NCBI GenBank assembly: GCA_032718475.1 | Contig: JAUCBJ010000306.1 | Coordinates: 59,994-123,993 of the forward strand | From: Nemertoderma westbladi | Lineage: Eukaryota; Animalia; Xenacoelomorpha | Direction: 5' to 3' | DNA: 64,000 nt | Part shown: positions 13,421 through 60,350 of the stretch, one piece after another | How positions within the stretch are numbered: the stretch's first letter is position 1 | Layout: each line of letters begins with the position of its first letter | The notes under the pieces: model-generated | Seen by the model: the letters and a program-made list of their open reading frames with translations, nothing else | Told to the model about the DNA's origin: nothing | Databases searched by the model: none | Made by a program: the position numbers and the translations under genes

Positions 13421-13895
13421 TACATTATAGCACAGGGCGACAGACTCTAGATATATACATCATCGTCGCTCTGATGTATATTGTAGCATTTAGAAATCTT
13501 CGACTAGACTCATATACACTAGTTGAGCTGTTTTTGAATTTATATTATGAGAGAGGCGAAGGAAGTGATTGGGGAGACAAACCTGTGGGTTTGGCTTACT
13601 CCTTTCACTTGCCCTAGCAAAATTTTTTATATATTTGATCTTGTATGTAGTAATCATTATGTAGTAAGAACGAGAAACAATATTTTGTAAATTTAATTTG
13701 AATGAGAGAGATAATATTTGTAAATTTAATTTGTATGCAATTCATTATGCAATATCTATAGCAATATTTTGTAAATAGTAGGATTTATAGTATCAAGTAT
13801 TTAGATTAGTTGGAAGAAATTTATTTTGTTTGTATACATCACCTTATACTCTTCTACAGTTGGAGGGAAACATTATATGATTTCCCTTGGAGCGG

Positions 13896-16074: not shown

Positions 16075-19000
16075 GTCCGTCCAGTCCTATATTTACTTAC
16101 ATTCATCGAATGGGGTCCGTCCAGTCCTAATTTACTTACATTCATCGAATGGGGTCCGTCCAGTCCTATATTTACTGACATTCATCGAATGGGGTCCGTC
16201 CAGTCCTAATTTACTTACATCCATCGAATGGGGTCCGTCCAGTCCTAATTTACTTACATTCATCGAATGGGGTCCGTCCAGTCCTAATTTACTTACATTC
16301 ATCGAATGGGGTCCGTCCAGTCCTAATTTACTTACATTCATCGAATGGGGTCCGTCCAGTCCTAATTTACTTACATTCATCGAATGGGGTCCGTCCAGTC
16401 CTATATTTACTGACATTCATCGAATGGGGTCCGTCCAGTCCTAATTTACTTACATTCATCTAATGGGGTCCGTCCAGTCCTAATTTACTTACATTCATCG
16501 AATGGGGTCCGCCCAGTCCTTCATTTACTTACATTCATCGAATGGGGTCCGTCCAGTCCTAATTTACTGACATTCATCGAATGGGGTCCGTCCAGTCCTA
16601 TATTTACTTACATTCGTCGAATGGGGTCCGTCCAGTCCTAATTTACTGACATTCATCGAATGGGGTCCGTCCAGTCCTAATTTACTTACATTCATCGAAT
16701 GGGGTCCGTCCAGTCCTATATTTACTGACATTCATCGAATGGGGTCCGTCCAGTCCTAATTTACTGACATTCATCGAATGGGGTCCGTCCAGTCCTATAT
16801 TTACTTACATTCATCGAATGGGGTCCGTCCAGTCCTTCATTTACTTACATTCATCGAATGGGGTCCGTCCAGTCCTAATTTACTTACATTCATCGAATGG
16901 GGTCCGTCCAGTCCTAATTTACTGACATTCATCGAATGGGGTCCGTCCAGTCCTAATTTACTTACATTCATCAAATGGGGTCCGTCCAGTCCTAATTTAC
17001 TTACATTCATCGAATGGGGTCCGTCCAGTCATATATTTACTGACATTCATCGAATGGGGTTCGTCCAGTCCTAATTTACTTACATTCATCGAATGGGGTC
17101 CGCCCAGTCCTAATTTACTTACATTCATCGAATGGGGTCCGTCCAGTCCTAATTTACTTACATTCATCGAATGGGGTCCGTCCAGTCCTAATTTACTTAC
17201 ATTCATCGAATGGGGTCCGTCCAGTCCTAATTTACTTACATTCATCGAATGGGGTCCGTCCAGTCCTAATTTACTTACATTCATCGAATGGGGTCCGTCC
17301 AGTCCTAATTTACTTACATTCATCGAATGGGGTCCGTCCAGTCCTATATTTACTGACATTCATCGAATGGGGTCCGTCCAGTCCTAATTTACTTACATTC
17401 ATCGAATGGGGTCCGTCCAGTCCTATATTTACTGACATTCATCGAATGGGGTCCGTCCAGTCCTAATTTACTTACATTCATCGAATGGGGTCCGTCCAGT
17501 CCTATATTTACTGACATTCATCGAATGGGGTCCGTCCAGTCCTAATTTACTTACATTCATCGAATGGGGTCCATCCAGTCCTAATTTACTTACATTCATC
17601 GAATGGGGTCCGTCCAGTTCTAATTTACTTACATTCATCGAATGGTGTCCGTCCAGTCCTAATTTACTTACATTCATCGAATGGGGTCCGTCCAGTCCTA
17701 ATTTACTTACATTCATCGAATGGGGTCCGTCCAGTCCTATATTTACTGACATTCATCGAATGGGGTCCGTCCAGTCCTAATTTACTTACATTCATCGAAT
17801 GGGGTCCGCCCAGTCCTATATTTACTGACATTCATCGAATGGGGTCCGTCCAGTCCTAATTTACTTACATTCATCGAATGGGGTCCGTCCAGTCCTAATT
17901 TACTTACATTCATCGAATGGGGTCCGTCCAGTCCTAATTTACTTACATTCATCGAATGGGGTCCGTCCAGTCAGTCCTATATTTACTTACATTCATCGAA
18001 TGGGGTCCGTCCAGTCCTTCATTTACTTACATTCATCGAATGGGTTCCGTCCAGTCCTTCATTTACTTACATTCATCGAATGGGGTCCGTCCAGTCCTTC
18101 ATTTACTTACATTCATCGAATGGGGTCCGTCCAGTCCTTCATTTACTTACATTCATCGAATGGGGTCCGTCCAGTCCTTCATTTACTTACATTCATCGAA
18201 TGGGGTCCGTCCAGTCCTTCATTTACTTACATTCATCGAATGGGGTCCGTCCAGTCCTTCATTTACTTACATTCATCGAATGGGGTCCGTCCAGTCCTAA
18301 TTTACTTACATTCATCGAATGGGGTCCGTCCAGTCCTATATTTACTGACATTCATCGAATGGGGTCCGTCCAGTCCTATATTTACTTACATTCATCGAAT
18401 GGGGTCCGTCCAGTCCTTCATTTACTTACATTCATCGAATGGGTTCCGTCCAGTCCTTCATTTACTTACATTCATCGAATGGGGTCCGTCCAGTCCTTCA
18501 TTTACTTACATTCATCGAATGGGGTCCGTCCAGTCCTTCATTTACTTACATTCATCGAATGGGGTCCGTCCAGTCCTTCATTTACTTACATTCATCGAAT
18601 GGGGTCCGTCCAGTCCTTCATTTACTTACATTCATCGAATGGGGTCCGTCCAGTCCTTCATTTACTTACATTCATCGAATGGGGTCCGTCCAGTCCTATA
18701 TTTACTGACATTCATCGAATGGGGTCCGTCCAGTCCTAATTTACTTACATTCATCGAATGGGGTCCGTCCAGTCCTATATTTACTTACATTCATCGAATG
18801 GGGTCCGTCCAGTCCTAATTTACTTACATTCATCGAATGGGGTCCGTCCAGTCCTAATTTACTTACATTCATCGAATGGGGTCCGTCCAGTCCTAATTTA
18901 CTTACATTCATCGAATGGGGTCCGTCCAGTCCTATATTTACTGACATTCATCGAATGGGGTCCGTCCAGTCCTATATTTACTTACATTCATCGAATGGGG

Positions 19001-19392
19001 TCCGTCCAGTCCTATATTTACTTACATTCATCGAATGGGGTCCGTCCAGTCCTAATTTACTTACATTCATCGAATGGGGTCCGTCCAGTCCTAATTTACT
19101 TACATTCATCGAATGGGGTCCGTCCAGTCCTAATTTACTTACATTCATCGAATGGGGTCCGTCCAGTCCTTCATTTACTTACATTCATCGAATGGGGTCC
19201 GTCCAGTCCTATATTTACTTACATTCATCGAATGGGGTCCGTCCAGTCCTAATTTACTTACATTCGTCGAATGGGGTCCGTCCAGTCCTAATTTACTTAC
19301 ATTCATCGAATGGGGTCCGTCCAGTCCTATATTTACTTACATTCATCGAATGGGGTCCGTCCAGTCCTTCATTTACTTACATTCATCGAATG
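16075..19392. repeat. 39/40-bp tandem array (~84 copies) made of an exon 3' end plus GTAAGT donor
   Basis: Minus-strand unit AGGACTGGACGGACCCCATTCGATGAAT|GTAAGTAAAT matches the end of exon 19381-19493. Confidence 0.95.
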
Positions 19393-22300
19393 AGGCCCTG
19401 GGTCCAGTCCTTTTTTTAGAATCCGGTGGCTTTTTCTTCTGTAAATTTTCGTACAGCATCATTGCCTTTTTCCTCTTTTCGGCTTTTCGAAGCCTGAAAG
19501 CCAAAAATGAAGGAGTTTAGTATAAAGTAAATAAATTACAATATTATAAATAGAGTTGTAATATCACCTATCACCTCTCACTTTAAATCTCCTCATTGGT
19601 TACTTACCTTTCCAACTCGTCATTGGATACCGGCGGTTTCTCAAGTTTCTCTTCAACAACAACAGGAGGCGGCTCCGGTGATGGGGGAACTTCCGGTAAT
19701 GGTTCCGGAAGCGGAATCTCTACTTCTATTTCCGGTTCCGGTATAGGAGGCGGCGATATAGGAGGTGTTAGTATTGCTGCGATAGAGAAATACAGTAATT
19801 TCGGATAAATATATTAGATTCGGTATTTAAGTTCGTTAATTAATACATTATTACGCTATGGGCAAATACTTGTTGGGTGAGCTGTTTAATATTATTTAAC
19901 TTACAAGGTGGTTCAGCTGTTTAATATTATTTAACTTACAAGGTTGTTCAGCTGTTTAATATTATTTAACTTACGAGGTGGTTCAGTTGTTTAATATAAT
20001 TTAACTTATGAGGTGGTTCACCTGTTTAATATTATTTAACTTATGACGTGGTTCAGCTGTTTAATATTATATAACTTACGAGGTGGTTCAGTTGTTTAAT
20101 ATAATTTAACTTATGAGGTGGTTCACCTGTTTAATATTATTTAACTTATGACGTGGTTCAGCTGTTTAATATTATATAACTTATGAGGTGGTTCAGCTGT
20201 TTAATATTATTTAACTTACGAGGTGGTTCAGCTGTTTAATATTATATAACTTATGAGGTGGTTCAGCTGTTTAATATTATTTAAGTTATGAGATGGTTCA
20301 GCTGTTTAATATTATTTAACTTATGAGGTGGTTCAGCTGTTTAATATAATTTAACTTATGAGGTGGTTCACCTGTTTAATATTATATAACTTATGAGGAG
20401 GTTCAGCTGTTTAATATTCTATAACTTATGAGGTGGTTCAGCTGTTTAATATTATTTAACTTACGAGGTGATTCAGCTGTTTAATATTGTATAACTTATG
20501 AGGTGGTTCAGCTGTTTAATATTATATAACTTATGAGGTGGTTCAGCTGTTTAATATTATATAACTTATGAGGTGGTTCAGCTGTTTAATATTCTATAAC
20601 TTATGAGGTGGTTCAGCTGTTTAATATTATTTAACTTACGAGGTGATTCAGCTGTTTAATATTGTATAACTTATGAGGTGGTTCAGCTGTTTAATATTAT
20701 ATAACTTATGAGGTGGTTCAGCTGTTTAATATTCTATAACTTATGAGGTGGTTCAGCTGTTTAATATTATTTAAGTTATGAGGTGGTTCAGCTGTTTAAT
20801 ATTATATAACTTATGAGGTGGTTCAGCTGTTTAATATTATATAACTTATGAGGTGGTTCAGCTGTTTAATATTATATAACTTATGAGGAGGTTCAGCTGT
20901 TTAATATTCTATAACTTATGAGGTGGTTCAGCTGTTTAATATTATTTAACTTACGAGGTGATTCAGCTGTTTAATATTGTATAACTTATGAGGTGGTTCA
21001 GCTGTTTAATATTATATAACTTATGAGGTGGTTCAGCTGTTTAATATTATATAACTTATGAGGTGGTTCAGCTGTTTAATATTCTATAACTTATGAGGTG
21101 GTTCAGCTGTTTAATATTATTTAAGTTATGAGGTGGTTCAGCTGTTTAATATTATATAACTTATGAGGTGGTTCAGCTGTTTAATATTATTTAACTTACA
21201 AGGTGGTTCAGCTGTTTAATATTCTATAACTTATGAGGTTGTTCAGCTGTTTAATATTATTTAAGTTATGAGGTGGTTCAGCTGTTTAATATTATTTAAG
21301 TTGAGGTGGTTCAGCTGTTTAATATTATATAACTTATGAGGTGGTTCAGCTGTTTAATATTATTTAAGTTATGAGGTGGTTCAGCTGTTTAATATTATTT
21401 AACTTACGAGGTGGTTCAGCTGTTAATTATTATATAACTTACAAGGTGGTTCAGCAGTTTAATATTATTTAACTTACAAGGTTGTTCAGCTGTTTAATAT
21501 TATTTAACTTATGAGGTGGTTCAGCTGTTTAATATTATTTAACTTACGAGGTGGTTCAGCAGTTTAATATTATTTAACTTATGAGGTGATTCAGCTGTTT
21601 AATATTATTTAACTTATGAGGTGGGTCAGTTTAATATTATTTAACTTACGAGGTGATTCAGCTGTTTAATATTATTTAACTTACGAGGTGATTCAGCTGT
21701 TTAATATTATTTAACTTACGAGGTGGTTCAGCAGTTTAATATTATTTAACTTATGAGGTGGTTCAGCTGTTTAATATTATTTAACTTACGAGGTGATTCA
21801 GCTGTTTAATATTGTATAACTTATGAGGTGGTTCAGCAGTTTAATATTATTTAACTTATGAGGTTGGTCAGCTGTTTAATATTCTATAACTTGAGGTGGT
21901 TCAGCTGTTGAATATTATTTAACTTACGAGGTGATTCAGCTGTTTAATATTGTATAACTTATGAGGTGGTTCAGCAGTTTAATATTATTTAACTTATGAG
22001 GTGGGTCAGCTGTTTAATATTCTATAACTTATGAGGTGGTTCAGCTGTTGAATATTATTTAACTTACGAGGTGATTCAGCTGTTTAATATTGTATAACTT
22101 ATTTTATGAGGTGGTTCAGCTGTTTAATATTATTTAACTTACGAGGTGGTTCAGCAGTTTAATATTATTTAACTTATGAGGTGGGTCAGCTGTTTAATAT
22201 TCTATAACTTATGAGGTGGTTCAGCTGTTGAATATTATTTAACTTACGAGGTGATTAAGCTGTTTAATATTGTATAACTTATGAGGTGGTTCAGCTGTTT

Positions 22301-25300
22301 AATATTATTTAAGTTATGAGGTGGGTCAGCTGTTTAATATTATTTAACTTATGAGGTGGTTCAGCAGTTTAATATTATTTAACTTATGAGGTGGGTCAGC
22401 TGTTTAATATTCTATAACTTACGAGGTGGTTCAGCTGTTTAATATTATTTAACTTATGAGGTGGTTCAGCAGTTTAATATTATTTAACTTATGAGGTGGT
22501 TCAGCAGTTTAATATTATTTAACTTATGAGGTGGGTCAGTTGTTTAATATTCTATAACTTACGAGGTGGTTCAGCTGTTTAATATTATTTAACTTATGAG
22601 GTGGTTCAGCTGTTTAATATTATTTAACTTATGAGGTGGTTCAGCAGTTTAATATTATTTAACTTATGAGGTTGTTCAGCTGTTTAATATTATTTAACTT
22701 ATGAGGTGGTTCAGCTGTTTAATATTATTTAACTTACGAGGTGGTTCAGCAGTTTAATATTATTTAACTTATGAGGTGATTCAGCTGTTTAATATTATTT
22801 AACTTATGAGGTGGGTCAGTTTAATATTATTTAACTTACGAGGTGATTCAGCTGTTTAATATTATTTAACTTACGAGGTGATTCAGCTGTTTAATATTAT
22901 TTAACTTACGAGGTGGTTCAGCAGTTTAATATTATTTAACTTATGAGGTGGTTCAGCTGTTTAATATTATTTAACTTACGAGGTGATTCAGCTGTTTAAT
23001 ATTGTATAACTTATGAGGTGGTTCAGCAGTTTAATATTATTTAACTTATGAGGTTGGTCAGCTGTTTAATATTCTATAACTTGAGGTGGTTCAGCTGTTG
23101 AATATTATTTAACTTACGAGGTGATTCAGCTGTTTAATATTGTATAACTTATGAGGTGGTTCAGCAGTTTAATATTATTTAACTTATGAGGTGGGTCAGC
23201 TGTTTAATATTCTATAACTTATGAGGTGGTTCAGCTGTTGAATATTATTTAACTTACGAGGTGATTCAGCTGTTTAATATTGTATAACTTATTTTATGAG
23301 GTGGTTCAGCTGTTTAATATTATTTAACTTACGAGGTGGTTCAGCAGTTTAATATTATTTAACTTATGAGGTGGGTCAGCTGTTTAATATTCTATAACTT
23401 ATGAGGTGGTTCAGCTGTTGAATATTATTTAACTTACGAGGTGATTAAGCTGTTTAATATTGTATAACTTATGAGGTGGTTCAGCTGTTTAATATTATTT
23501 AAGTTATGAGGTGGGTCAGCTGTTTAATATTATTTAACTTATGAGGTGGTTCAGCAGTTTAATATTATTTAACTTATGAGGTGGGTCAGCTGTTTAATAT
23601 TCTATAACTTACGAGGTGGTTCAGCTGTTTAATATTATTTAACTTATGAGGTGGTTCAGCAGTTTAATATTATTTAACTTATGAGGTGGTTCAGCAGTTT
23701 AATATTATTTAACTTATGAGGTGGGTCAGTTGTTTAATATTCTATAACTTACGAGGTGGTTCAGCTGTTTAATATTATTTAACTTATGAGGTGGTTCAGC
23801 TGTTTAATATTATTTAACTTATGAGGTGGTTCAGCAGTTTAATATTATTTAACTTATGAGGTTGTTCAGCTGTTTAATATTATTTAACTTATGAGGTGGT
23901 TCAGCTGTTTAATATTATTTAACTTACGAGGTGGTTCAGCAGTTTAATATTATTTAACTTATGAGGTGATTCAGCTGTTTAATATTATTTAACTTATGAG
24001 GTGGGTCATTTTAATATTATTTAACTTACGAGGTGATTCAGCTGTTTAATATTATTTAACTTACGAGGTGATTCAGCTGTTTAATATTATTTAACTTATG
24101 AGGTGGTTCAGCAGTTTAATATTATTTAACTTATGAGGTGGGTCAGCTGTTTAATATTCTATAACTTACGAGGTGGTTCAGCTGTTGAATATTATTTAAC
24201 TCACGAGGTGATTCAGCTGTTTAATATTGTATAACTTATGAGGTGGTTCAGCTGTTTAATATTGTATAACTTATGAGGTGGTTCAGCTGTTTAATATTAT
24301 GTAACTTATGAGGTGGTTCAGCTGTAACTTACAAGGTTGTTCAGCTGTTTAATATTATTTAACTTATGAGGTGGTTCAGCTGTTTAATATTATTTAACTT
24401 ACGAGGTGATTCAGCTGTTTAATATTGTATAACTTATGAGGTGGTTCAGCTGTTTAATATTATATAACTTATGAGGTGGTTCAGCTGTTGAATATTATTT
24501 AACTTACGAGGTGGTTCAGCTGTAACTTACAAGGTTGTTCAGCTGTTTAATATTATTTAACTTATGAGGTGGTTCAGCTGTTTAATATTATTTAACTTAC
24601 GAGGTGATTCAGCTGTTTAATATTGTATAACTTATGAGGTGGTTCAGCTGTTTAATATTATATAACTTATGAGGTGGTTCAGCTGTTGAATATTATTTAA
24701 CTTACGAGGTGGTTCAGCTGTAACTTACAAGGTGGTTCAGCAGTTTAATATTATATAACTTACAAGGTTGTTCAGCTGTTTAATATTATATAACTTACAA
24801 GGTGGTTCAGGTGTTGGCTCTTTTGACGACGGGGGCGGAGGCTTTTCCTTCTTTTTTTTCTTTTTCTTCTTCTTTATTACCTGAGTTAAATAAATTATTT
24901 TTTTAAGATTTTAAAGGTAAAATAATAATTAATTATTATAAATATAATCCCCCCCCCCCCCAAAAAAAAAAAACGCCATACTGCACAGTATATTGGTTGA
25001 TTGACCGGGGGGCTGCATGCCGGTTAGATCCTGCAGCTCTCTGCCTAGTCTAGTCTCTGCCAACGAATCAGCGTGTTTCGCACTGCATGCTGCTACCCCG
25101 GTTGCCGGTAGGTGGTTTTGGAGAATCAGCCTGCGGCTGCTGCCTTGTCTGGCCGGCATCGCCCGCATGGAGGCGGGTGACTGGTCGATAGTGTGGGGAG
25201 CCGGTCCTACAGTATAGACCCTTTGTGTAGTCGGTTCTTCTACATTGGTGATCTTCATCGGTACCTATTTATAAAAAATTAAATCTCTTACCGCTAGACC

Positions 25301-28300
25301 TTCTTTACAAACACCAAATTGGTATTCTAATACCCAATTTCAACGGTTGTCACCACTGTCTACTTGACTATAATGTTTGATGTTCATAATAATATGATTC
25401 CACCTGAATCAGTTGTAGGAAGTATGTTCGAAAAAGTTTCATCGTGCCACACTTATCCTACTAGGGCGTCGGCTCACAGAAACTTCGCTATCCCTATCGA
25501 CTGACATCAACCCAATCAACTGCGAGTTTTCGGGGTCCGGTTTTTTGGAATGACATTCCTGTCGACATTAAACAAAAAAAAGAAAAAAAAAAGCCGGCCT
25601 TCTTGACTCACCTTAAAAAATTGCAATCGTTATAGCTATTAATATCTCAATCTGGTTCTTTTCGAACGGCAAAACCGAAACCTCCATTGAAAAATAACTT
25701 ATAAATAAATCTTAACGTTACATGGCTGTTTTTGTTCGGGTCAGATTCATACATTACCTAATTGTGTATATCGTATAGGTATGCAGTCTGAAATTTAACC
25801 GGAGGAAGAGAGAGGGTGCGTGAAGGTGTAAATAGTAGGCTTACCATGTTAGGATCACTACTACATACCGGTACCGGTACTACTACATACCGGTACCGGT
25901 ACTACTACATACCGGTACCGGTACTACTACATACCGGTACCGGTACTACTACATACCGGTACCAGTACTACTACATACCGGTACCGGTACTACTACATAC
26001 CGGTACCGGTACTACTACATACCGGTACCGGTACTACTACATACCGGTACATTCCCATGTTAGGATCACTACTACATACCGGTACCGGTACTACTACATA
26101 CCGGTACCGGTACTACTACATACCGGTACCGGTACTACTACATACCGGTACCGGTACTACTACATACCGGTACCGGTACTACTACATACCGGTACCGGTA
26201 CTACTACATACCGGTACCAGTACTACTACATACCGGTACCGGTACTACTACATACCGGTACCGGTACTACTACATACCGGTACCGGTACTACTACATACC
26301 GGTACCGGTACTACTACATACCGGTACATTCCCATGTTAGGATCACTACTACATACCGGTACCGGTACTACTACATACCGGTACCGGTACTACTACATAC
26401 CGGTACCGGTACTACTACATACCGGTACCGGTACTACTACATACCGGTACCGGTACTACTACATACCGGTACCGGTACTACTACATACCGGTACCGGTAC
26501 CGGTACTACTACATACCGGTACCGGTACTACTACATACCGGTACATTCCCATGTTAGGATCACTACTACATACCGGTACCGGTACTACTACATACCGGTA
26601 CTGGTACTACTACATACCGGTACCGGTACTACTACATACCGGTACCGGTACTACTACATACCGGTACCGGTACTACTACATACCGGTACCGGTACTACTA
26701 CATACCGGTACTACTACATACCGGTACCGGTACTACTACATACCGGTACATTCCCATGTTAGGATCACTACTACATACCGGTACCGGTACTACTACATAC
26801 CGGTACCGGTACTACTACATACCGGTACTACTACATACCGGTACCGGTACTACTACATACCGGTACCGGACTACTACATACCGGTACCGGTACTACTACA
26901 TACCGGTACTACTACATACCGGTACCGGTACTACTACATACCGGTACATTCCCATGTTAGGATCACTACTACATACCGGTACCGGTACTACTACATACCG
27001 GTACTACTACATACCGGTACCGGTACTACTACATACCGGTACATTCCCATGTTAGGATCACTACTACATACCGGTACCGGTACTACTACATAGCGGTACC
27101 GGTACTACTACATACCGGTACTACTACATACCGGTACCGGTACTACTACATACCGGTACCGGTACTACTACATACCGGTACCGGACTACTACATACCGGT
27201 ACCGGTACTACTACATACCGGTACCGGTACTACTACATACCGGTACTACTACATACCGGTACCGGTACTACTACATACCGGTACATTCCCATGTTAGGAT
27301 CACTACTACATACCGGTACCGGTACTACTACATACCGGTACATTCCCATGTTAGGATCACTACTACATACCGGTACCGGTACTACTACATACCGGTACCG
27401 GTACTACTACATACCGGTACTACTACATACCGGTACCGGTACTACTACATACCGGTACATTCCCATGTTAGGATCACTACTACATACCGGTACCGGTACT
27501 ACTACATACCGGTACCGCTACTACTACATACCGGTACTACTACATACCGGTACCGGTACTACTACATACCGGTACCGGTACTACTACATACCGGTACCGG
27601 TACTACTACATACCGGTACCGGACTACTACATACCGGTACCGGTACTACTACATACCGGTACTACTACATACCGGTACCGGTACTACTACATACCGGTAC
27701 ATTCCCATGTGAGGATCACTACTACATACCGGTACCGGTACTACTACATACCGGTACATTCCCATGTTAGGATCACTACTACATACCGGTACCGGTACTA
27801 CTACATACCGGTACATTCCCATGTTAGGATCACTACTACATACCGGTACCTGTACTACTACATACCGGTACCGGTACTACTACATACCGGTACATTCCCG
27901 AATAGCTGTTGTTGGACCTATTTTTAAATATTCTGTTGTTCTCGTTTGAATTATTTTATTGATTGATAATTTTGCCACTGAAGACGCGCGGAAAGCGCGA
28001 AATGCCTGGACTAATTCATATATTTTATATTTTTATTACGCGGTAAAGACCCTTTGTCATACAACAACAATTAACTGAATAACATGTACACGTCGCTCTT
28101 TTCATCTACTTAACTATATGAACAGGAGTGGGTGGCCGTGGCACCGACACTGGGTTTGTGTGAATCAGGGATATTACACGCTTGCGGTATAATTCAATGC
28201 TGTCATCGCTTGGCGGGTCTGCTCTGCATTGGTGTTTAGACCCACATGAGGCGGAAATCGGCAGATGTAAACCCTACACTGGAAATTGTGGTGCTGTAGA

Positions 28301-40300: not shown

Positions 40301-43300
40301 CAAACTTTATACTTACTGTAATAGCAAACTTTATACTTACTGTAATAGCAAACTTTATACTTACTGTAATAGCAAACTTTATACTTACTGTAATAGCAAA
40401 CTTTATACTTACTGTAATAGTAAACTTTATACTTACTGTAATAGTAAACTTTATACTTACTGTAATAGCAAACTTTATACTTACTGTAATAGCAAACTTT
40501 ATACTTACTGTAATAGCAAACCTTATACTTACTGTAATAGCAAACTTTATACTTACTGTAATAGCAAACTTTATACTTACTGTAATAGCAAACTTTATAC
40601 TTACTGTAATAGCAAACTTTAGACTTACTGTAATAGCAAACTTTATACTTACTGTAATAGCAAACTTTATACTTACTGTAATAGCAAACTTTATACTTAC
40701 TGTATTAGCAAACTTTATACTTACTGTAATAGCAAACTTTATACTTACTGTAATAGCAAACTTTATACTTACTGTATTAGCAAACTTTATACTTACTGTA
40801 ATAGCAAACTTTATACTTACTGTAATAGCAAACTTTATACTTACTGTAATAGCAAACTTTATACTTACTGTAATAGCAAATTTTATACTTACTGTAATAG
40901 CAAACTTTATACTTACTGTAATAGTAAACTTTATACTTACTGTAATAGTAAACTTTATACTTACTGTAATAGCAAACTTTATACTTACTGTAATAGCAAA
41001 CTTTATACTTACTGTAATAGCAAACCATATACTTACTGTAATAGCAAACTTTATACTTACTGTAATAGCAAACTTTATACTTACTGTAATAGCAAACTTT
41101 ATACTTACTGTAATAGCAAACTTTATACTTACTGTAATAGCAAACTTTATACTTACTGTAATAGCAAACTTTATACTTACAGTAATAGCAAACTTTATAC
41201 TTACTGTAATAGCAAACTTTATACTTACTGTAATAGCAAACTTTATACTTACTGTAATAGCAAACTTTATACTTACTGTAATAGTAAACTTTATACTTAC
41301 TGTAATAGTAAACTTTATACTTACTGTAATAGCAAACTTTATACTTACTGTAATAGCAAACTTTATACTTACTGTAATAGCAAACTTTAGACTTACTGTA
41401 ATAGCAAACTTTATACTTACTGTAATAGCAAACTTTATACTTACTGTAATAGCAAACTTTATACTTACAGTAATAGCAAACTTTATACTTACTGTAATAG
41501 CAAACTTTATACTTACAGTAATAGCAAACTTTATACTTACAGTAACAGCAAACTTTAGACTTACTGTAATAGCAAACTTTATACTTACAGTAATAGCAAA
41601 CTTTATACTTACTGTAATAGCAAATTTTATACTTACTGTAATAGCAAACTTTATACTTACTGTAATAGTAAACTTTATACTTACTGTAATAGTAAACTTT
41701 ATACTTACTGTAATAGCAAACTTTATACTTACTGTAATAGCAAACTTTATACTTACTGTAATAGCAAACCTTATACTTACTGTAATAGCAAACTTTATAC
41801 TTACTGTAATAGCAAACTTTATACTTACTGTAATAGCAAACTTTATACTTACTGTAATAGCAAACTTTATACTTACTGTAATAGCAAACTTTATACTTAC
41901 TGTAATAGCAAACTTTATACTTACAGTAATAGCAAACTTTATACTTACTGTAATAGCAAACTTTATACTTACTGTAATAGCAAACTTTATACTTACTGTA
42001 ATAGCAAACTTTATACTTACTGTAATAGTAAACTTTATACTTACTGTAATAGTAAACTTTATACTTACTGTAATAGCAAACTTTATACTTACTGTAATAG
42101 CAAACTTTATACTTACTGTAATAGCAAACTTTAGACTTACTGTAATAGCAAACTTTATACTTACTGTAATAGCAAACTTTATACTTACTGTAATAGCAAA
42201 CTTTATACTTACAGTAATAGCAAACTTTATACTTACTGTAATAGCAAACTTTATACTTACAGTAATAGCAAACTTTATACTTACAGTAATAGCAAACTTT
42301 AGACTTACTGTAATAGCAAACTTTATACTTACAGTAATAGCAAACTTTATACTTACTATAATAGCAAATTTTATACTTACTGTAATAGCAAACTTTATAC
42401 TTACAGTAATAGCAAACTTTATACTTACAGTAATAGCAAACTTTAGACTTACTGTAATAGCAAACTTTATACTTACAGTAATAGCAAACTTTATACTTAC
42501 AGTAATAGCAAACTTTAGACTTACTATAATAGCAAACTTTAGACTTACTGTAATAGCAAACTTTATACTTACTGTAATAGCAAACTTTATACTTACAGTA
42601 ATAGCAAACTTTATACTTACAGTAATAGCAAACTTTAGACTTACTGTAATAGCAAACTTTATACTTACAGTAATAGCAAACTTTATACTTACTGTAATAG
42701 CAAATTTTATACTTACTGTAATAGCAAACTTTATACTTACTGTAATAGTAAACTTTATACTTACTGTAATAGTAAACTTTATACTTACTGTAATAGCAAA
42801 CTTTATACTTACTGTAATAGCAAACTTTATACTTACTGTAATAGCAAACCTTATACTTACTGTAATAGCAAACTTTATACTTACTGTAATAGCAAACTTT
42901 ATACTTACTGTAATAGCAAACTTTATACTTACTGTAATAGCAAACTTTATACTTACTGTAATAGCAAACTTTATACTTACTGTAATAGCAAACTTTATAC
43001 TTACTGTAATAGCAAACTTTATACTTACTGTATTAGCAAATTTTATACTTACTGTAATAGCAAACTTTATACTTACTGTAATAGCAAACTTTATACTTAC
43101 TGTAATAGCAAACTTTATACTTACTGTAATAGCAAACTTTATACTTACTGTAATAGCAAACTTTAGACTTACTGTAATAGCAAACTTTATACTTACAGTA
43201 ATAGCAAACTTTATACTTACTGTAATAGCAAACTTTATACTTACTGTAATAGCAAACTTTATACTTACTGTAATAGCAAACTTTATACTTACTGTAATAG

Positions 43301-46300
43301 CAAACTTTATACTTACTGTAATAGCAAACTTTATACTTACTGTAATAGCAAACTTTATACTTACTGTAATAGCAAACTTTATACTTACTGTATTAGCAAA
43401 TTTTATACTTACTGTAATAGCAAACTTTATACTTACTGTAATAGCAAACTTTATACTTACAGTAATAGCAAACTTTATACTTACTGTAATAGCAAACTTT
43501 ATACTTACTGTAATAGCAAACTTTATACTTACTGTAATAGCAAACTTTATACTTACTGTAATAGCAAACTTTATACTTACTGTAATAGCAAACTTTAGAC
43601 TTACTGTAATAGCAAACTTTATACTTACAGTAATAGCAAACTTTATACTTACTGTAATGGCAAACTTTATACTTACTGTAATAGCAAACTTTATACTTAC
43701 TGTAATAGCAAATTTTATACTTACTGTAATAGCAAACTTTATACTTACTGTAATAGTAAACTTTATACTTACTGTAATAGTAAACTTTATACTTACTGTA
43801 ATAGCAAACTTTATACTTACTGTAATAGCAAACTTTATACTTACTGTAATAGCAAACTTTATACTTACTGTAATAGCAAACTTTATACTTACTGTAATAG
43901 CAAACTTTATACTTACTGTAATAGCAAACTTTATACTTACTGTAATAGCAAACTTTAGACTTACTGTAATAGCAAACTTTATACTTACAGTAATAGCAAA
44001 CTTTATACTTACTGTAATAGCAAACTTTATACTTACTGTAATAGCAAACTTTATACTTACTGTAATAGCAAATTTTATACTTACTGTAATAGCAAACTTT
44101 ATACTTACTGTAATAGTAAACTTTATACTTACTGTAATAGTAAACTTTATACTTACTGTAATAGCAAACTTTATACTTACTGTAATAGCAAACTTTATAC
44201 TTACTGTAATAGCAAACCATATACTTACTGTAATAGCAAACTTTATACTTACTGTAATAGCAAACTTTATACTTACTGTAATAGCAAACTTTATACTTAC
44301 TGTAATAGCAAACTTTATACTTACTGTAATAGCAAACTTTATACTTACTGTAATAGCAAACTTTATACTTACAGTAATAGCAAACTTTATACTTACTGTA
44401 ATAGCAAACTTTATACTTACTGTAATAGCAAACTTTATACTTACTGTAATAGCAAACTTTATACTTACTGTAATAGTAAACTTTATACTTACTGTAATAG
44501 TAAACTTTATACTTACTGTAATAGCAAACTTTATACTTACTGTAATAGCAAACTTTATTCTTACTGTAATAGCAAACTTTAGACTTACTGTAATAGCAAA
44601 CTTTATACTTACTGTAATAGCAAACTTTAGACTTACTGTAATAGCAAACTTTATACTTACAGTAATAGCAAACTTTATACTTACTGTAATAGCAAACTTT
44701 ATACTTACAGTAATAGCAAACTTTATACTTACTGTAACAGCAAACTTTAGACTTACTGTAATAGCAAATTTTATACTTACTGTAATAGCAAACTTTATAC
44801 TTACTGTAATAGTAAACTTTATACTTACTGTAATAGTAAACTTTATACTTACTGTAATAGCAAACTTTATACTTACTGTAATAGCAAACTTTATACTTAC
44901 TGTAATAGCAAACCTTATACTTACTGTAATAGCAAACTTTATACTTACTGTAATAGCAAACCTTATACTTACTGTAATAGCAAACTTTATACTTACTGTA
45001 ATAGCAAACTTTATACTTACTGTAATAGCAAACTTTATACTTACTGTAATAGCAAACTTTATACTTACTGTAATAGCAAACTTTATACTTACTGTAATAG
45101 CAAACTTTATACTTACAGTAATAGCAAACTTTATACTTACTGTAATAGCAAACTTTATACTTACTGTAATAGCAAACTTTATACTTACTGTAATAGCAAA
45201 CTTTATACTTACTGTAATAGTAAACTTTATACTTACTGTAATAGTAAACTTTATACTTACTGTAATAGCAAACTTTATACTTACTGTAATAGCAAACTTC
45301 ATACTTACTGTAATAGCAAACTTTAGACTTACTGTAATAGCAAACTTTATACTTACTGTAATAGCAAACTTTATACTTACTGTAATAGCAAACTTTATAC
45401 TTACAGTAATAGCAAACTTTATACTTACTGTAATAGCAAACTTTATACTTACAGTAATAGCAAACTTTATACTTACAGTAATAGCAAACTTTAGACTTAC
45501 TGTAATAGCAAACTTTATACTTACAGTAATAGCAAACTTTATACTTACTATAATAGCAAATTTTATACTTACTGTAATAGCAAACTTTATACTTACAGTA
45601 ATAGCAAACTTTATACTTACAGTAATAGCAAACTTTAGACTTACTGTAATAGCAAACTTTATACTTACAGTAATAGCAAACGTTATACTTACAGTAATAG
45701 CAAACTTTAGACTTACTATAATAGCAAACTTTAGACTTACTGTAATTGCAAACTTTATACTTACAGTAATAGCAAACTTTATACTTACAGTAATAGCAAA
45801 CTTTATACTTACTATAATAGCAAATTTTATACTTACTGTAATAGCAAACTTTATACTTACAGTAATAGCAAACATTATACTTACAGTAATAGCAAACTTT
45901 ATACTTACTATAATAGCAAACTTTATACTTACAGAAATAGCAAACTTTATACTTACTGTATTAGCAAACTTTATACTTACTGTAATAGCAAACTTTATAC
46001 TTACTGTAATAGCAAACTTTATACTTACTGTAATAGCAAACTTTATACTTACTGTAATAGCAAACTTTATACTTACAGTAATAGCAAACTTTATACTTAC
46101 TGTAATAGCAAACTTTATACTTACTGTAATAGCAAACTTTATACTTACTGTAATAGCAAATTTTATACTTACTGTAATAGCAAACTTTATACTTACTGGA
46201 ATAGCAAACTTTATACTTACTGTAATAGCAAACTTTATACTTACAGTAATAGCAAACTTTATACTTACTGTAATAGAAAACTTTATACTTACTGTAATAG

Positions 46301-49300
46301 CAAACTTTATACTTACTGTAATAGCAAACTTTATACTTACTGTAATAGCAAACTTTATACTTACTGTAATAGCAAACTTTATACTTACTGTAATAGCAAA
46401 CTTTATACTTACTGTAATAGCAAACTTTATACTTACTGTAATAGCAAACTTTATACTTACTGTATTAGCAAACTTTATACTTACTGTAATAGCAAACTTT
46501 ATACTTACTGTATTAGCAAACTTTATACTTACTGTAATAGCAAACTTTATACTTACTGTAATAGCAAACTTTATACTTACTGTAATAGCAAACTTTATAC
46601 TTACTGTAATAGCAAACTTTATACTTACTGTAATAGCAAACTTTATACTTACTGTAATAGCAAACTTTATACTTACTGTAATAGCAAACTTTATACTTAC
46701 TGTAATAGCAAACTTTATACTTACTGTAATAGCAAACTTTATACTTACTGTAATAGCAAACTTTATACTTACTGTAATAGCAAACTTTATACTTACTGTA
46801 ATAGCAAACTTTATACTTACTGTAATAGCAAACTTTAGACTTACTGTAATAGCAAACTTTATACTTACTGTAATAGCAAACTTTATACTTACTGTAATAG
46901 CAAACTTTATACTTACTGTAATAGCAAACTTTATACTTACAGTAATAGCAAACTTTATACTTACTATAATAGCAAACTTTAGACTTACTGTAATAGCAAA
47001 CTTTATACTTACTGTAATAGCAAATTTTATACTTACTGTAATAGCAAACTTTATACTTACTGTAATAGCAAACTTTATACTTACTGTATTAGCAAACTTT
47101 ATACTTACTGTAATAGCAAACTTTATACTTACTGTAATAGCAAACTTTATACTTACTGTAATAGCAAACTTTATACTTACTGTAATAGCAAATTTTATAC
47201 TTACTGTAATAGCAAACTTTATACTTACTGTAATAGTAAACTTTATACTTACTGTAATAGTAAACTTTATACTTACTGTAATAGCAAACTTTATACTTAC
47301 TGTAATAGCAAACTTTATACTTACTGTAATAGCAAACCATATACTTACTGTAATAGCAAACTTTATACTTACTGTAATAGCAAACTTTATACTTACTGTA
47401 ATAGCAAACTTTATACTTACTGTAATAGCAAACTTTATACTTACTGTAATAGCAAACTTTATACTTACTGTAATAGCAAACTTTATACTTACAGTAATAG
47501 CAAACTTTATACTTACTGTAATAGCAAACTTTATACTTACTGTAATAGCAAACTTTATACTTACTGTAATAGCAAACTTTATACTTACTGTAATAGTAAA
47601 CTTTATACTTACTGTAATAGTAAACTTTATACTTACTGTAATAGCAAACTTTATACTTACTGTAATAGCAAACTTTATACTTACTGTAATAGCAAACTTT
47701 AGACTTACTGTAATAGCAAACTTTATACTTACTGTAATAGCAAACTTTATACTTACTGTAATAGCAAACTTTATACTTACAGTAATAGCAAACTTTATAC
47801 TTACTGTAATAGCAAACTTTATACTTACAGTAATAGCAAACTTTATACTTACAGTAACAGCAAACTTTAGACTTACTGTAATAGCAAACTTTATACTTAC
47901 AGTAATAGCAAACTTTATACTTACTGTAATAGCAAATTTTATACTTACTGTAATAGCAAACTTTATACTTACTGTAATAGCAAACTTTATACTTACTGTA
48001 ATAGTAAACTTTATACTTACTGTAATAGCAAACTTTATACTTACTGTAATAGCAAACTTTATACTTACTGTAATAGCAAACCTTATACTTACTGTAATAG
48101 CAAACTTTATACTTACTGTAATAGCAAACTTTATACTTACTGTAATAGCAAACTTTATACTTACTGTAATAGCAAACTTTATACTTACTGTAATAGCAAA
48201 CTTTATACTTACTGTAATAGCAAACTTTATACTTACAGTAATAGCAAACTTTATACTTACTGTAATAGCAAACTTTATACTTACTGTAATAGCAAACTTT
48301 ATACTTACTGTAATAGCAAACTTTATACTTACTGTAATAGTAAACTTTATACTTACTGTAATAGTAAACTTTATACTTACTGTAATAGCAAACTTTATAC
48401 TTACTGTAATAGCAAACTTTATACTTACTGTAATAGCAAACTTTAGACTTACTGTAATAGCAAACTTTATACTTACTGTAATAGCAAACTTTATACTTAC
48501 TGTAATAGCAAACTTTATACTTACAGTAATAGCAAACTTTATACTTACTGTAATAGCAAACTTTATACTTACAGTAATAGCAAACTTTATACTTACAGTA
48601 ATAGCAAACTTTAGACTTACTGTAATAGCAAACTTTATACTTACAGTAATAGCAAACTTTATACTTACTATAATAGCAAATTTTATACTTACTGTAATAG
48701 CAAACTTTATACTTACAGTAATAGCAAACTTTATACTTACAGTAATAGCAAACTTTAGACTTACTGTAATAGCAAACTTTATACTTACAGTAATAGCAAA
48801 CTTTATACTTACAGTAATAGCAAACTTTAGACTTACTATAATAGCAAACTTTAGACTTACTGTAATAGCAAACTTTATACTTACAGTAATAGCAAACTTT
48901 ATACTTACAGTAATAGCAAACTTTATACTTACTATAATAGCAAATTTTATACTTACTGTAATAGCAAACTTTATACTTACAGTAATAGCAAACATTATAC
49001 TTACAGTAATAGCAAACTTTATACTTACTATAATAGCAAACTTTATACTTACAGAAATAGCAAACTTTATACTTACTGTATTAGCAAACTTTATACTTAC
49101 TGTAATAGCAAACTTTATACTTACTGTAATAGCAAACTTTATACTTACTGTAATAGCAAACTTTATACTTACTGTAATAGCAAACTTTATACTTACAGTA
49201 ATAGCAAACTTTATACTTACTGTAATAGCAAACTTTATACTTACTGTAATAGCAAACTTTATACTTACTGTAATAGCAAATTTTATACTTACTGTAATAG

Positions 49301-52300
49301 CAAACTTTATACTTACTGGAATAGCAAACTTTATACTTACTGTAATAGCAAACTTTATACTTACAGTAATAGCAAACTTTATACTTACTGTAATAGAAAA
49401 CTTTATACTTACTGTAATAGCAAACTTTATACTTACTGTAATAGCAAACTTTATACTTACTGTAATAGCAAACTTTATACTTACTGTAATAGCAAACTTT
49501 ATACTTACTGTAATAGCAAACTTTATACTTACTGTAATAGCAAACTTTATACTTACTGTAATAGCAAACTTTATACTTACTGTATTAGCAAACTTTATAC
49601 TTACTGTAATAGCAAACTTTATACTTACTGTAATAGCAAACTTTATACTTACTGTAATAGCAAACTTTATACTTACTGTAATAGCAAACTTTATACTTAC
49701 TGTAATAGCAAACTTTATACTTACTGTAATAGCAAACTTTATACTTACTGTAATAGCAAACTTTATACTTACTGTAATAGCAAACTTTATACTTACTGTA
49801 ATAGCAAACTTTATACTTACTGTAATAGCAAACTTTATACTTACTGTAATAGCAAACTTTATACTTACAGTAATAGCAAACTTTATACTTACTGTAATAG
49901 CAAACTTTAGACTTACTGTAATAGCAAACTTTATACTTACTGTAATAGCAAACTTTATACTTACTGTAATAGCAAACTTTATACTTACTGTAATAGCAAA
50001 CTTTATACTTACAGTAATAGCAAACTTTATACTTACTATAATAGCAAACTTTACACTTACTGTAATAGCAAACTTTATACTTACAGTAATAGCAAACTTT
50101 ATACTTACTATAATAGCAAATTTTATACTTACTATAATAGCAAACTTTAGACTTACTGTAATAGCAAACTTTATACTTACTATAATAGCAAATTTTATAC
50201 TTACTGTAATAGCAAACTTTATACTTACTATAATAGCAAATTTTATACTTACTGTAATAGCAAACTTTATACTTACTATAATAGCAAACTTTAGACTTAC
50301 TGTAATAGCAAACTTTATACTTACAGTAATAGCAAACTTTATACTTACTATAATAGCAATTTTATACTTACTGTAATAGCAAACTTTATACTTACTGTAA
50401 TAGCAAACTTTATACTTACTGTAATAGCAAACTTTATACTTACTGTAATAGCAAACTTTATACTTACTGTAATAGCAAACTTTATACTTACTGTAATAGT
50501 AAACTTTATACTTACTGTAATAGCAAACTTTATACTTACTGAAATAGCAAACTTTATACTTACTGTAATAGCAAACTTTAGACTTACTGTAATAGCAAAC
50601 TTTATACTTACTGTAATAGCAAACTTTATACTTACTGTAATAGCAAACTTTATACTTACAGTAATAGCAAACTTTATACTTACAGTAATAGCAAACTTTA
50701 GACTTACTGTAATAGCAAACTTTATACTTACAGTAATAGCAAACTTTATACTTACTGTAATAGCAAACTTTATACTTACTGTAATAGCAAACTTTAGACT
50801 TACTGTAATAGCAAACTTTATACTTACTGTAATAGCAAACTTTAGACTTACTGTAATAGCAAACTTTATACTTACTGTAATAGCAAACTTTATACTTACT
50901 GTAATAGCAAATTTTATACTTACAGTAATAGCAAACTTTATACTTACAGTAATAGCAAACTTTAGACTTACTGTAATAGCAAACTTTATACTTACAGTAA
51001 TAGCAAACTTTATACTTACAGTAATAGCAAACTTTAGACTTACTGTAATAGCAAACTTTATACTTACAGTAATAGCAAACTTTATACTTACTATAATAGC
51101 AAACTTTAGACTTACTGTAATAGCAAATTTTATACTTACTGTAATAGCAAACTTTATACTTACAGTAATAGCAAACTTTATACTTACTGTAATAGCAAAC
51201 TTTATACTTACTGTAATAGCAAACTTTATACTTACTGTAATAGCAAACTTTATACTTACTGTAATAGCAAACTTTATACTTACTGTAATAGCAAACTTTA
51301 TACTTACTGTAATAGCAAACTTTATACTTACTGTAATAGCAAACTTTATACTTACTGTAATAGCAAACTTTATACTTACTGTAATAGCAAACTTTATACT
51401 TACTGTAATAGCAAACTTTATACTTACAGTAATAGCAAACCTTATACTTACTGTAATAGCAAACTTTATACTTACTATAATAGCAAACTTTATACTTACT
51501 GTAATAGCAAACTTTAGACTTACTGTAATAGCAAACTTTATACTTACTGTAATAGCAAACTTTATACTTACTATAATAGCAAACTTTATACTTACTGTAA
51601 TAGCAAACTTTAGACTTACTGTAATAGCAAACTTTATACTTACTGTAATAGCAAACTTTATACTTACAGTAATAGCAAACTTTAGACTTACTATAATAGC
51701 AAACTTTAGACTTACTGTAATAGCAAACTTTATACTTACTGTAATAGTAAACTTTATACTTACTGTAATAGCAAACTTTACACTTACTGTAATAGCAAAC
51801 TTTATACTTACAGTAATAGCAAATTTTATACTTACTGTAATAGCAAACTTTAGACTTACTGTAATAGCAAACTTTATACTTACTGTAATAGCAAACTTTA
51901 TACTTACTGCAATAGCAAACTTTAGACTTACTGTAATAGCAAACTTTATACTTACTGTAATAGCAAACTTTATACTTACTGTAATAGCAAACTTTAGACT
52001 TACTGTAATAGCAAACTTTATACTTACTGTAATAGCAAACTTTATACTTACTGTAATAGCAAACTTTAGACTTACTGTAATAGCAAACTTTATACTTACT
52101 GTAATAGCAAACTTTATACTTACTGTAATAGCAAACTTTATACTTACTGTAATAGCAAACTTTATACTTACTGTAATAGCAAACTTTATACGTACTGTAA
52201 TAGCAAACTTTATACTTACTGTAATAGCAAACTTTATACTTACTGTAATAGCAAACTTTATACTTACTGTAATAGCAAACTTTATACTTACTGTAATAGC

Positions 52301-52900
52301 AAACTTTATACTTACTGTAATAGCAAACTTTATACTTACTGTAATAGCAAACTTTATACTTACTGTAATAGCAAACTTTATACGTACTGTAATAGCAAAC
52401 TTTATACTTACTGTAATAGCAAACTTTATACTTACTGTAATAGCAAACTTTATACGTACTGTAATAGCAAACTTTATACTTACTGTATTAGCAAATTTTA
52501 TACTTACTGTAATAGCAAACTTTATACTTACAGTAATAGCAAACTTTATACTTACTGTAATAGCAAACTTTATACTTACTGTAATAGCAAATTTTATACT
52601 TACTGTAATAGCAAACTTTATACTTACTGTAATAGCAAACGTTATACTTACAATGAATAAGTTTATGTTCTTCCATAGCTGAATTCGATTCAAATACTTC
52701 ATCGCACAAAGGACAGGGAAACTTTGGAGCTGAAAAATTGCAATAAAGTAGAAAATTAATATATTACGAAGCAATAAACCTATTAATCAATCTAAATTAT
52801 AATTGCTACTTGTTGAACTCACCATGTATTTTCTTGTGTACTTCCACTTCAGGTTTAGTGTGAAATCTTTCATCGCACTTAGGACATTTAAACTTTGGCG
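19381..52900 (-). CDS. Multi-exon C2H2 zinc-finger gene (partial). Exons 52900-52823, 52729-52652, 28569-28403, 27917-27888, (25757-25722?), 24880-24799, 19776-19608, 19493-19381
   Basis: All exons have AG/GT boundaries and matching phases. The joined frame is open: PKFKCPKCDERFHTKPEVEVHKKIH-APKFPCPLCDEVFESNSAMEEHKLIH-FPFPCDKCDQRF..HWNSVH..CNKCDEIF..HMKVHEPPP-VQQQLFGNVP-VIKKKKKKKKEKPPPPSSKEPTPEPP-SILTPPISPPP..ELE-RLRKAEKRKK..SFDE. Confidence 0.85.
19879..24810. repeat. 35-bp tandem array (~140 copies) made of exon end plus donor
   Basis: Minus-strand unit CTGAACCACCT(T/C)|(G/A)TAAGTTA(A/T)ATAATATTAAACAG is continuous with exon 24799-24880. Confidence 0.95.
25330..25630 (+). mobile_element. 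Decayed CR1/L2-type LINE 3' end
   Basis: Translates to ..SFRGPVFWNDIPVDIK..F..HLKK, a typical ORF2 C-terminus. Confidence 0.55.
25845..27899. repeat. Compound 22-bp/16-bp/35-bp tandem array with palindromic ACCGGTACCGGT core
   Basis: Units CCGGTACCGGTACTACTACATA interspersed with CATTCCCATGTTAGGATCACTACTACATACCGGTA. The minus strand repeats GTACCG|GTATGT. Confidence 0.95.
28787..52651. repeat. 24-bp satellite, ~990 copies, filling one zinc-finger gene intron
   Basis: Unit ATACTTACTGTAATAGCAAACTTT (minus strand GTAAGTATAAAGTTTGCTATTACA). It starts at the donor G at 52651; a single 1-nt register shift occurs near 50359. Confidence 0.98.
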
Positions 52901-53108
52901 CTGAAATATAATAAATTTAGGTTTTGATTAAGATAATTACAGTACTATGTAATACTATTAGAAAAATGCAGGGGGGGGGGGGGGGGTGGGTTGGTTTGGG
53001 GGTGGGACTGGACGCAAATCCCCTCTCGGCGAATTAATACTTTGCAACAATTTTTGATGATAAATTCAGGAAAAGGAACAGGTTACGGGCACGTTATATT
53101 AACCAAAA

Positions 53109-58143: not shown

Positions 58144-58929
58144 CCCTCTGAGGTTACTTATAAGAGAGAAGATCTTAAGATAGACAGACAAATTAAAAAC
58201 TGAAAAACCAACAAACAGCAACAAGGTTGAGAAAGCTAAGGAAGATCTTAAAGTGGCCTACAACATAGCCAGGAGAAGTACATACAGTTAAAAATTAACA
58301 AAATTACAACTGCTCACATCCAGCAACAATCATGACTTACCTGGCAAACTGTAAATGAAACTGGGCGAAAACTGGGCATTGTTGTAGATTAGAGAGTCCT
58401 TCGATGTAGTAGTAACGCAAGTTGCCGAAGGTTTTTAATGTGAGCGATAACTGAGTTTATTTAATATTTTGATACTTGAGAGTGAGGAAAATGTGGTGAG
58501 CAGCCCCTTAAATACCTTCTCAGGAAGCGATCTGATTGGGTAGCTAAGGAGACTGCTTAGTGGCCAGCTAGTTACTTTTTGATCCAAAAGGTGAGTATAG
58601 ATAAACTGTTAGGAGTAATCTGTTGAAGTAACTGGTAATTTTGCCGACAAACTTGCGATTATTTACTCTCATCTTCTATTTTGATCGGTCAAAATAGGAC
58701 AATAAATAATTGACAGAAAATAATTATATAAAAAAAAAATCAAATAGTAGGATAACTTTAAATTAATTCATGCAGACACTCAAATAATTAAGTAAATAAT
58801 ATACAATAAGATAGTTGGTGCAAAGAAAGCCAAGTTAATTAATAATTAATATGAAATATTATAAGTAATATAAGCGATGAAATTCGCAACATTAATTATT
58901 TAATTAATGCAAATCAAATTAACACAGAA

Positions 58930-59940: not shown

Positions 59941-60350
59941 TAGGATTCACTGGGAAGAGATATTCATCTGGTGGGGTAATACATTATACAAACTTACAGT
60001 TGATGTTTGATTACTGTCTGGGTTAGAGTGAGATAGAAATAAATTTGCTTGGCAAGTAATATACTTCTCTGCAGTTTGGGCCTATCCATTCAATAAATAG
60101 TAGTAGCTTACTAGGCCACATGAGTACCAGCAGCTGGTGTTTCTATCATTGAGTTGATGGCAATTTTTGTGTTTTCATTTTCACGCACTCAGGGCAATGG
60201 TTTGAGGGGCAGGTTCGTTTAAAGCCAGCTTGCTGGCTTTCTAGTTAATAATTATAATTCATAAAAATATAATACAGTAGCTAACGGTATTAATAATCTG
60301 GAAAACGTTATACTGAATATCGAACACAACAAATCGGAGAGGTAAAAGTT

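Follow-up and report, generated by a model that had tools for sequence, protein, structure and literature searches.

Four minisatellite arrays at splice donors of a predicted zinc-finger gene of Nemertoderma westbladi, likely an unusually large example of mirage-type repeats

Exon-intron boundaries copied in tandem are known from lancelets under the name 'mirages', a class whose Adh3 case was reportedly first described by Canestro in 2002. The accounts of the mirage loci (Adh3, the globins BflGb6 and BflGb9, troponin C and PGBD5) describe normal splicing together with length instability (PMC3087553; PMC3902484), and the origin of these repeats is there called unclear (PMC3087553). Comparable variable number tandem repeats (VNTRs) that span a splice donor are reported for the human genes F7 in intervening sequence 7 (IVS7; 37 bp, 5-9 copies), IFI6/6-16 (25 pseudo-sites), CBS in IVS13 (15-20), LMNB2 (10-15) and PDGF in intron 4 (16-18), and mutagenesis of F7 is reported to show a 5′-to-3′ choice of the first site (PMC1557585); a VNTR is also reported for FAM20C (PMC5941971). 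Here we describe a stretch of 64,000 nucleotides from Nemertoderma westbladi (assembly GCA_032718475.1, contig JAUCBJ010000306.1, positions 59,994 to 123,993 of the forward strand; hereafter the window, with coordinates counted from its first letter), in which a predicted C2H2 zinc-finger gene on the minus strand carries four tandem arrays, each beginning at the donor of a confirmed or predicted exon.

Reading the window on its minus strand yields seven candidate exons, A to G, with GT-AG introns throughout, which join in a single open frame whether exon D, of 30 nt, is included or skipped. These exons and the four arrays are as follows.

52823..52900, minus strand: exon A, 78 nt, predicted, with one C2H2 finger (zf-C2H2 E 3.9e-5, 24.3 bits, cut-off 25.2); its array-free donor is followed by a 93-nt intron.
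52652..52729, minus strand: exon B, 78 nt, predicted, with one C2H2 finger (zf-C2H2 E 2.5e-5, 24.9 bits); its donor starts array 1.
28403..28569, minus strand: exon C, 167 nt, predicted from frame and motif, with two C2H2-type fingers and an array-free donor.
27888..27917, minus strand: exon D, 30 nt, predicted only, with a purine-rich, weak acceptor; optional for the frame.
24799..24880, minus strand: exon E, Lys/Pro-rich and 82 nt long; a spliced contig shows the final 30 nt running straight into exon F.
19608..19776, minus strand: exon F, 169 nt, Pro/Glu-rich, found in the spliced contig; its array-free donor is followed by a 114-nt intron.
19381..19493, minus strand: exon G, 113 nt, found in the spliced contig and joined there at 19381 to a further exon outside the window.
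28787..52651, minus strand: array 1, 994 units of 24 nt, starting at +1 of the intron between B and C; GT in 994/994 units, 2.2% divergence from consensus, no recognisable exon share.
25845..27893, minus strand: array 2, units of 16, 22 and 35 nt made of the putative exon D end and the intron start; GT in 87/88.
19880..24810, minus strand: array 3, 139 units, mostly of 35 nt, from exon position −12 to intron position +23; GT in 48/139; spliced out whole.
16075..19392, minus strand: array 4, 84 units of 39/40 nt, made of ~31 nt of edited exon end and 10-11 nt of intron; GT in 84/84; cut at 16074 by a long terminal repeat (LTR).

Arrays were located with Tandem Repeats Finder (TRF), and the 13 merged arrays it returned were compared with the splice sites. 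The four large ones (TRF spans 28787-52651 with period 24, 25857-27893 with 22 and longer, 19880-24810 with 35 and 16075-19392 with 39) hold 994, 88, 139 and 84 units, respectively. On the transcript side, 0, 6, 12 and 12 nt separate them from the donors of exons B, D, E and G at 52651, 27887, 24798 and 19380. An initial annotation of the window had placed all four starts at minus-strand donors, which these distances confirm, with the reservation that exon D, on which array 2 depends, is a prediction. Its statement that none sits at an acceptor held entirely: acceptors are untouched by all 13 merged arrays, the closest array end being 103 nt off, while the other nine arrays keep at least 400 nt from every donor and no large one among the merged arrays lies in an intron interior of the gene. 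The donor hexamer is present in the unit of all four, and apart from it the units look mutually unrelated by inspection. The earlier description of the units as donor-bearing is correct in this sense but has to be narrowed, given that the unit of array 1 has no exon share and that 91 of the 139 units of array 3 lack the GT.

The arrays sum to 34,133 bp, 93% of the 36,826 bp between exon A and position 16075, in agreement with the ~34 kb first estimated, and the 23.9 kb of array 1 make up 70% of the repeat DNA. From A to G the introns measure 93, 24,082, 485, 3,007, 5,022 and 114 nt, and the intron after exon G exceeds 19 kb, its far end lying beyond the window. Unexpanded neighbours had been put at ~90-115 nt, which suits the array-free introns of 93 and 114 nt but not the third, of 485 nt. 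Position 16075 proved not to be a natural end of array 4, which is cut there by the LTR of a BEL/Pao retrotransposon.

Splicing was followed in one 2,306-nt contig of run X3, which is catalogued as 'DNA?' and was taken as RNA-derived solely from the spliced state of this contig. Exons F and G are joined in it with the 114-nt intron removed, exon F is preceded by the last 30 nt of exon E with array 3 removed whole, and exon G continues at 19381 into new exon sequence absent from the window, so that the splicing together of exons is borne out for E-F, F-G and G-next. In this one contig the donor used at array 3, as at array 4, is the first. Since it has 1,130 nt upstream of exon F and the predicted exons A-E sum to 435 nt, further 5′ exons exist; a strong donor CAG/GTAAGT (the slash marking the exon-intron border) at 58340, upstream of a gypsy element, may be where one of them ends.

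The assignment to C2H2 zinc-finger genes is likewise upheld, with one finger each in exons A and B, both scoring slightly below the curated Pfam cut-off, and two finger-like motifs in exon C. Exon B appears well supported by its likeness to exon A in length, phase and finger. Exons E-G are rich in Lys/Pro/Glu, and exons F and G gave zero Pfam matches. A homologue search with exon C among proteins of 98-2000 aa found none, a HMMER search with exon G over 1.84 billion representatives returned 0 hits, and for exon F metagenome contigs gave 592 pattern hits, 0 of them confirmed; these searches with exons C, F and G yielded no orthologue from which ancestral intron sizes could be read. Overall, we regard the gene model and the anchoring of the arrays at donors as supported.

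Two further runs, X1 and X2, are DNA; X1 is possibly the source of the window, and X2 comes from a different sample and study, with 3 differences from the window. Units of arrays 3 and 4 occur in both runs at high summed depth, where contig depth shows the presence of the units and does not measure copy number. Read by eye, the terminal copy of array 4 in the X1 and X2 contigs ends and unique sequence follows. In X2 this copy is nearer to exon G than the inner consensus is, and it runs into a pyrimidine tract and CAG and then the letter that starts the next exon (also by eye), which we infer to be the next acceptor. If the terminal copy leads into that acceptor, the array-free intron would have been ~50 nt long, nearly half of it exon-derived. 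High depth of arrays 3 and 4 in two samples leaves very little room for an assembly artefact, in which the arrays or their length would stem from read or assembly errors. What such an artefact could best account for is array 1, whose length is taken from the assembly and which holds a 5.8-kb near-duplicate block: the stretch of units 200-445 comes back after 241 units, and the two copies differ by 57 mismatches over 5,880 nt. That block, however, differs at 1%, and units carry structured variants, unlike a collapsed or doubled read.

The anatomy of the units bears most directly on how the arrays began. In array 2 the 35-mer reaches from exon D position −12 to intron position +23, joining 12 nt of exon and 25 nt of intron over a 2-nt microhomology; the 16-mer reaches from −6 to +10 (6 + 12 nt with a 2-nt overlap), and the common 22-mer has a second copy of the same 6 exon nucleotides added. 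Judged from these letters, array 2 is a set of three nested duplications at a single putative junction. At its end, at 25844, stands a second donor-like site, ATG/GTAAGC, which comes from the original intron start and would be an alternative donor if exon D were differently bounded. The 35-mer of array 3 runs from −12 to +23 with a CT overlap, and the array 4 unit carries ~31 nt of the exon G end, altered at a short internal stretch (p 0.0005); for all nine unit types tested from arrays 3 and 4, alignment to the respective exon end gave p 0.0005-0.0015. Arrays 2 and 3 thus present unrelated 35-nt units in the same register (27888-27899 plus 27865-27887, and 24799-24810 plus 24776-24798), with a 2-nt uncertainty from the microhomology. 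The common register may reflect chance or a preferred duplication footprint.

Array 1 is built differently. Its unit has 10 nt in common with the intron downstream of the array, the other 14 nt are unlike exon B, and its first unit is unique, an edge copy distinct from the rest. An exon origin of the unit was rejected, as alignment to the exon B end gave p 0.84-0.98 in all five unit types. Array 1 is donor-initiated, not shown to be donor-spanning, and fits a boundary-spanning step loosely. Between its end and the exon C acceptor, at 28684-28804, lie weak, degenerate repeats of 14-26 nt, possibly older slippage products.

We favour, at a rough probability of 0.58, an origin of the arrays as 'mirage'-type minisatellites of splice donors, produced by edge-biased seeding, survival through the first donor and block expansion without function. 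The exon end and intron start would initially be duplicated via microhomology, as the unit anatomy of arrays 2-4 and the 2-nt microhomologies of arrays 2 and 3 suggest, and such seeds would be commoner at exon edges than in intron interiors. With the most upstream donor in use the protein would remain unchanged, which agrees with arrays 3 and 4 in the one contig and, experimentally, with human F7; an acceptor-side copy would place the decoy first and be removed more often. Multi-unit block duplication and homogenised inner copies, with edge copies left behind, form a pattern visible in the arrays that points to growth by unequal exchange, likely without function, the decoys of array 3 decaying via CpG-type change. 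The arrays are likely tolerated because the first donor wins.

Held against the published class, all four arrays consist of head-to-tail units of 16-40 nt in an intron beside an exon, mirage units being ~10-160 bp. Arrays 2, 3 and 4 span the boundary with 12, 12 and ~31 nt of exon end, array 2 on condition of the predicted exon D, whereas array 1, starting at +1, acts like a mirage and is not a strict member. The splice signal is repeated in many copies throughout (GT in 994/994, 87/88, 48/139 and 84/84), and homogenised inner copies with distinct edge copies are seen in the first unit of array 1 and, by eye, in the terminal copy of array 4. Arrays 3 and 4 can on this structural basis be counted as mirages, and array 2 too if exon D is real. 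All four together present ~1,200 GT decoy donors. Where array 3 has lost the GT, in 91 of 139 units, the pair at −1/+1 tells of its decay: over the whole array it reads TG in 10 units, CG in 38, CA in 89 and AA in 2, the series that would be expected of CpG decay followed by homogenisation.

How surprising the placement is was gauged against a null of uniform placement of duplications across each intron, stripped of its array, plus the intron edges, the array 4 intron being assumed to be 100 nt. Individual arrays would cover a donor with probabilities of 0.03-0.37, and all four would do so at 1e-4, or at 2e-4 with acceptor-spanning events removed, in a test that concerns one gene in a window chosen post hoc. 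Because dropping acceptor-spanning events barely shifts the probability, a selective filter alone does not explain the preference for junctions over interiors. The filter proposed in the initial annotation, by which the first donor survives, agrees with the human F7 experiments (PMC1557585) and with the X3 contig, and is retained here for donor over acceptor only. Its alternative, a donor-tied process via U1/RNA polymerase II pausing or R-loops, is singled out by no result. Donors and acceptors carry arrays at 4/7 and 0/7 sites (p = 35/1001 = 0.035, one-sided, by hand arithmetic; weaker if exon D falls), a weak indication of donor-over-acceptor bias from a single gene. A null based on hexamer content (product 7.5e-7) is not relied on, the array 2 unit being an off-phase slice and the argument partly circular for exon D.

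These figures also bear on an origin with no seeding bias at all, in which duplications may land at any position, those in exons or on the acceptor side are lost to purifying selection and the four donor hits are a tail picked out from a great many windows scanned. The window was indeed picked for its striking look, the introns are short, so that junctions form a big share of the target (hence the per-array values above), and, exon D being a prediction and array 1 having no exon sequence, the arrays that span a boundary and are also backed by RNA number two. We nevertheless consider it unlikely, given a joint probability of 2e-4 even without acceptor-spanning events, intron interiors of the gene free of large arrays, and a layout that recurs in four lancelet loci and five human genes.

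Several observations weigh against edge-seeded, functionless mirages. The array 1 unit has no match to the exon B end, and the placement null is post hoc and limited to a single gene. Joins A-B, B-C, C-D and D-E, and exon D itself, are predicted from sequence, and a single contig cannot reveal minor decoy use, contigs losing rare forms. Mirages are described at both boundaries in lancelets, so an acceptor filter would not be strict (PMC3087553). Most pointed is the behaviour of the array 1 donor hexamer (+1 to +6), intact in 989 of 994 units: it is the least variable of 24 circular six-base windows (permutation p 0.006-0.03), and 3 of its 18 possible alleles occur, compared with 26 of 54 elsewhere (Fisher p 0.026). 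This constancy speaks against strict neutrality, in a test on one array with non-independent copies that is one of several made, and array 3 shows the opposite.

The same constancy, with GT in 994/994 units, is the main argument for selection during expansion, in which only donor-bearing units would reach tens of kb, bound U1 shielding the intron from premature cleavage and polyadenylation (telescripting). Three of the four units also contain on the sense strand a poly(A)-signal-like hexamer (TATAAA in 873 copies, ATTAAA in 129, AGTAAA in 84). Such hexamers arise in 10-34% of shuffled units, however, and were rejected as stand-alone evidence. Telescripting is reported from human, mouse and fly (PMC5499120). 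Array 3 fits it poorly, keeping its ATTAAA while 91 of 139 units are without GT; variants in a homogenising array are non-independent and the window test is one of several, and a 16-kb retrotransposon sits in the same gene. We hold selection of this kind to be improbable. A broader proposal, that donors both seed and license satellite growth, with donor-bearing units kept via U1 protection as a general road from 100-nt to giant introns, seems to us no less doubtful; if true, array 1, which couples 994/994 GT with a poly(A)-signal-like hexamer, would be a 24-kb snapshot of such growth.

Translation continued past exon B into array 1 stays open for six units, with the first stop in unit 7. In arrays 2, 3 and 4 such a reading is ended by a stop after 9, 21 and 2 codons. 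Recursive splicing proceeds through juxtaposed acceptor-donor sites (YAG/GT) along an intron. It was rejected for this gene, where AG/GT-type sites are essentially absent: none of the YAG/GT type in array 4, 3 non-donor AGGT in array 3, 1 in array 2, and one AAG/GTAAGT unit among the 994 of array 1. The open stretch of array 1 would suit a regulatory role, in which decoy use would tune the zinc-finger protein through alternative isoforms or through unproductive splicing, and human IFI6 and CBS are reported to use two pseudo-sites beside the real one (PMC1557585). Against this, read-through into the other three arrays ends early, the sole contig uses the first donors, 84-994 copies go far beyond the need of a near-exon choice, and the recursive-type AG/GTAAG is missing from arrays 3 and 4 and found in one unit of array 1; we consider such a role highly unlikely.

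Tandem arrays are not the only repeats of the locus, as two retrotransposons lie beside them.

1..16074, plus strand: BEL/Pao LTR retrotransposon of at least 16 kb, in array 4 and the intron after exon G (Peptidase_A17 E 2.7e-39, DUF5641 E 4.7e-18).
53108..58149, minus strand: Ty3/gypsy-type LTR retrotransposon, 200 nt upstream of exon A, with LTRs 99.2% alike and one open 1,485-aa frame.

The LTRs of the BEL/Pao element are 98.8% alike over the 655 nt visible; the element has gag-like and pol open reading frames (ORFs), a 1,259-aa plus-strand ORF (9641-13420) without a Pfam match, and small internal tandem repeats at 4644-4984. The Ty3/gypsy-type element is probably intronic and a recent insertion. 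With these two recent retrotransposons, two introns have gained at least 21 kb. The locus collects several repeat kinds, and its introns are enlarged by retrotransposons as well. Further right, at 60297-61004 on the plus strand, opposite the zinc-finger gene, a single-frame, Cys-rich ORF of 235 aa is hydrophobic near either end and has a Thr/Glu-rich stalk, giving the impression of a surface-anchored protein; it may be nested if the 5′ exons of the gene lie further right. A search with the plus-strand ORF at 60348-61001 gave 47 homologue candidates, 0 of them at E 0.001, and no Pfam match.

The class to which these arrays belong is already known and named, and the locus is likely an unusually large example of the repeat type seen in lancelets and humans. 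Its remarkable feature is the scale: the four introns present ~1,200 decoy GT donors and a single array 994, where the published cases compared have 3-25 copies. This makes the gene a natural test of first-come donor choice under extreme conditions. The locus also suits asking whether exon edges are where minisatellites seed and whether the size that an intronic array can reach depends on its donor content. The literature searched, with few subscription papers and no supplements, contained no array this large and no genome-wide donor-versus-acceptor test of junction-copy arrays.

Among more distant systems, plants and green algae share a genome-wide excess of tandem repeats near junctions, although those are described as lying at both intron ends and as mostly short motifs, not junction copies (PMC3887541). 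As in Drosophila Y genes, satellite DNA makes up most of the gene length (PMC11207136; PMC6508613). Introns of those Y genes, however, are given as hundreds of kb to Mb, with satellites not described as tied to donors (PMC11207136), in contrast to 3-24 kb here. Intron gigantism of the Drosophila Y type was rejected on size, the introns measuring 24.1, 3.0 and 5.0 kb and, after exon G, more than 19 kb. The systematic route to intron gigantism put forward in the initial annotation is a conjecture that starts from introns far smaller than those the term denotes. Internal tandem repeats of human segmental duplications come closer, being ~30-bp minisatellites at exon-intron boundaries that lengthen introns; they average ~4 copies and are tied in that account to new introns or alternative transcripts, whereas no new intron is shown here (PMC2812944).

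With the human donor-spanning VNTRs the arrays share a first unit that overlaps the donor, identical pseudo-donors downstream and, for arrays 3 and 4 in the X3 contig, use of the most upstream site (PMC1557585). Unlike the human genes, each reported with one short array, this gene has four, and first-donor use comes here from one contig, not from mutagenesis. The likeness to lancelet mirages lies in a junction copied in tandem, a repeated splice signal and edge copies outside homogenisation, the Adh3 units being given as 10-72 bp (PMC3087553; PMC3902484). Where the lancelet globin mirages are described with 3-6 units at both boundaries, the arrays of this gene hold 84-994 units, extend up to 23.9 kb and lie on the donor side in all four cases.

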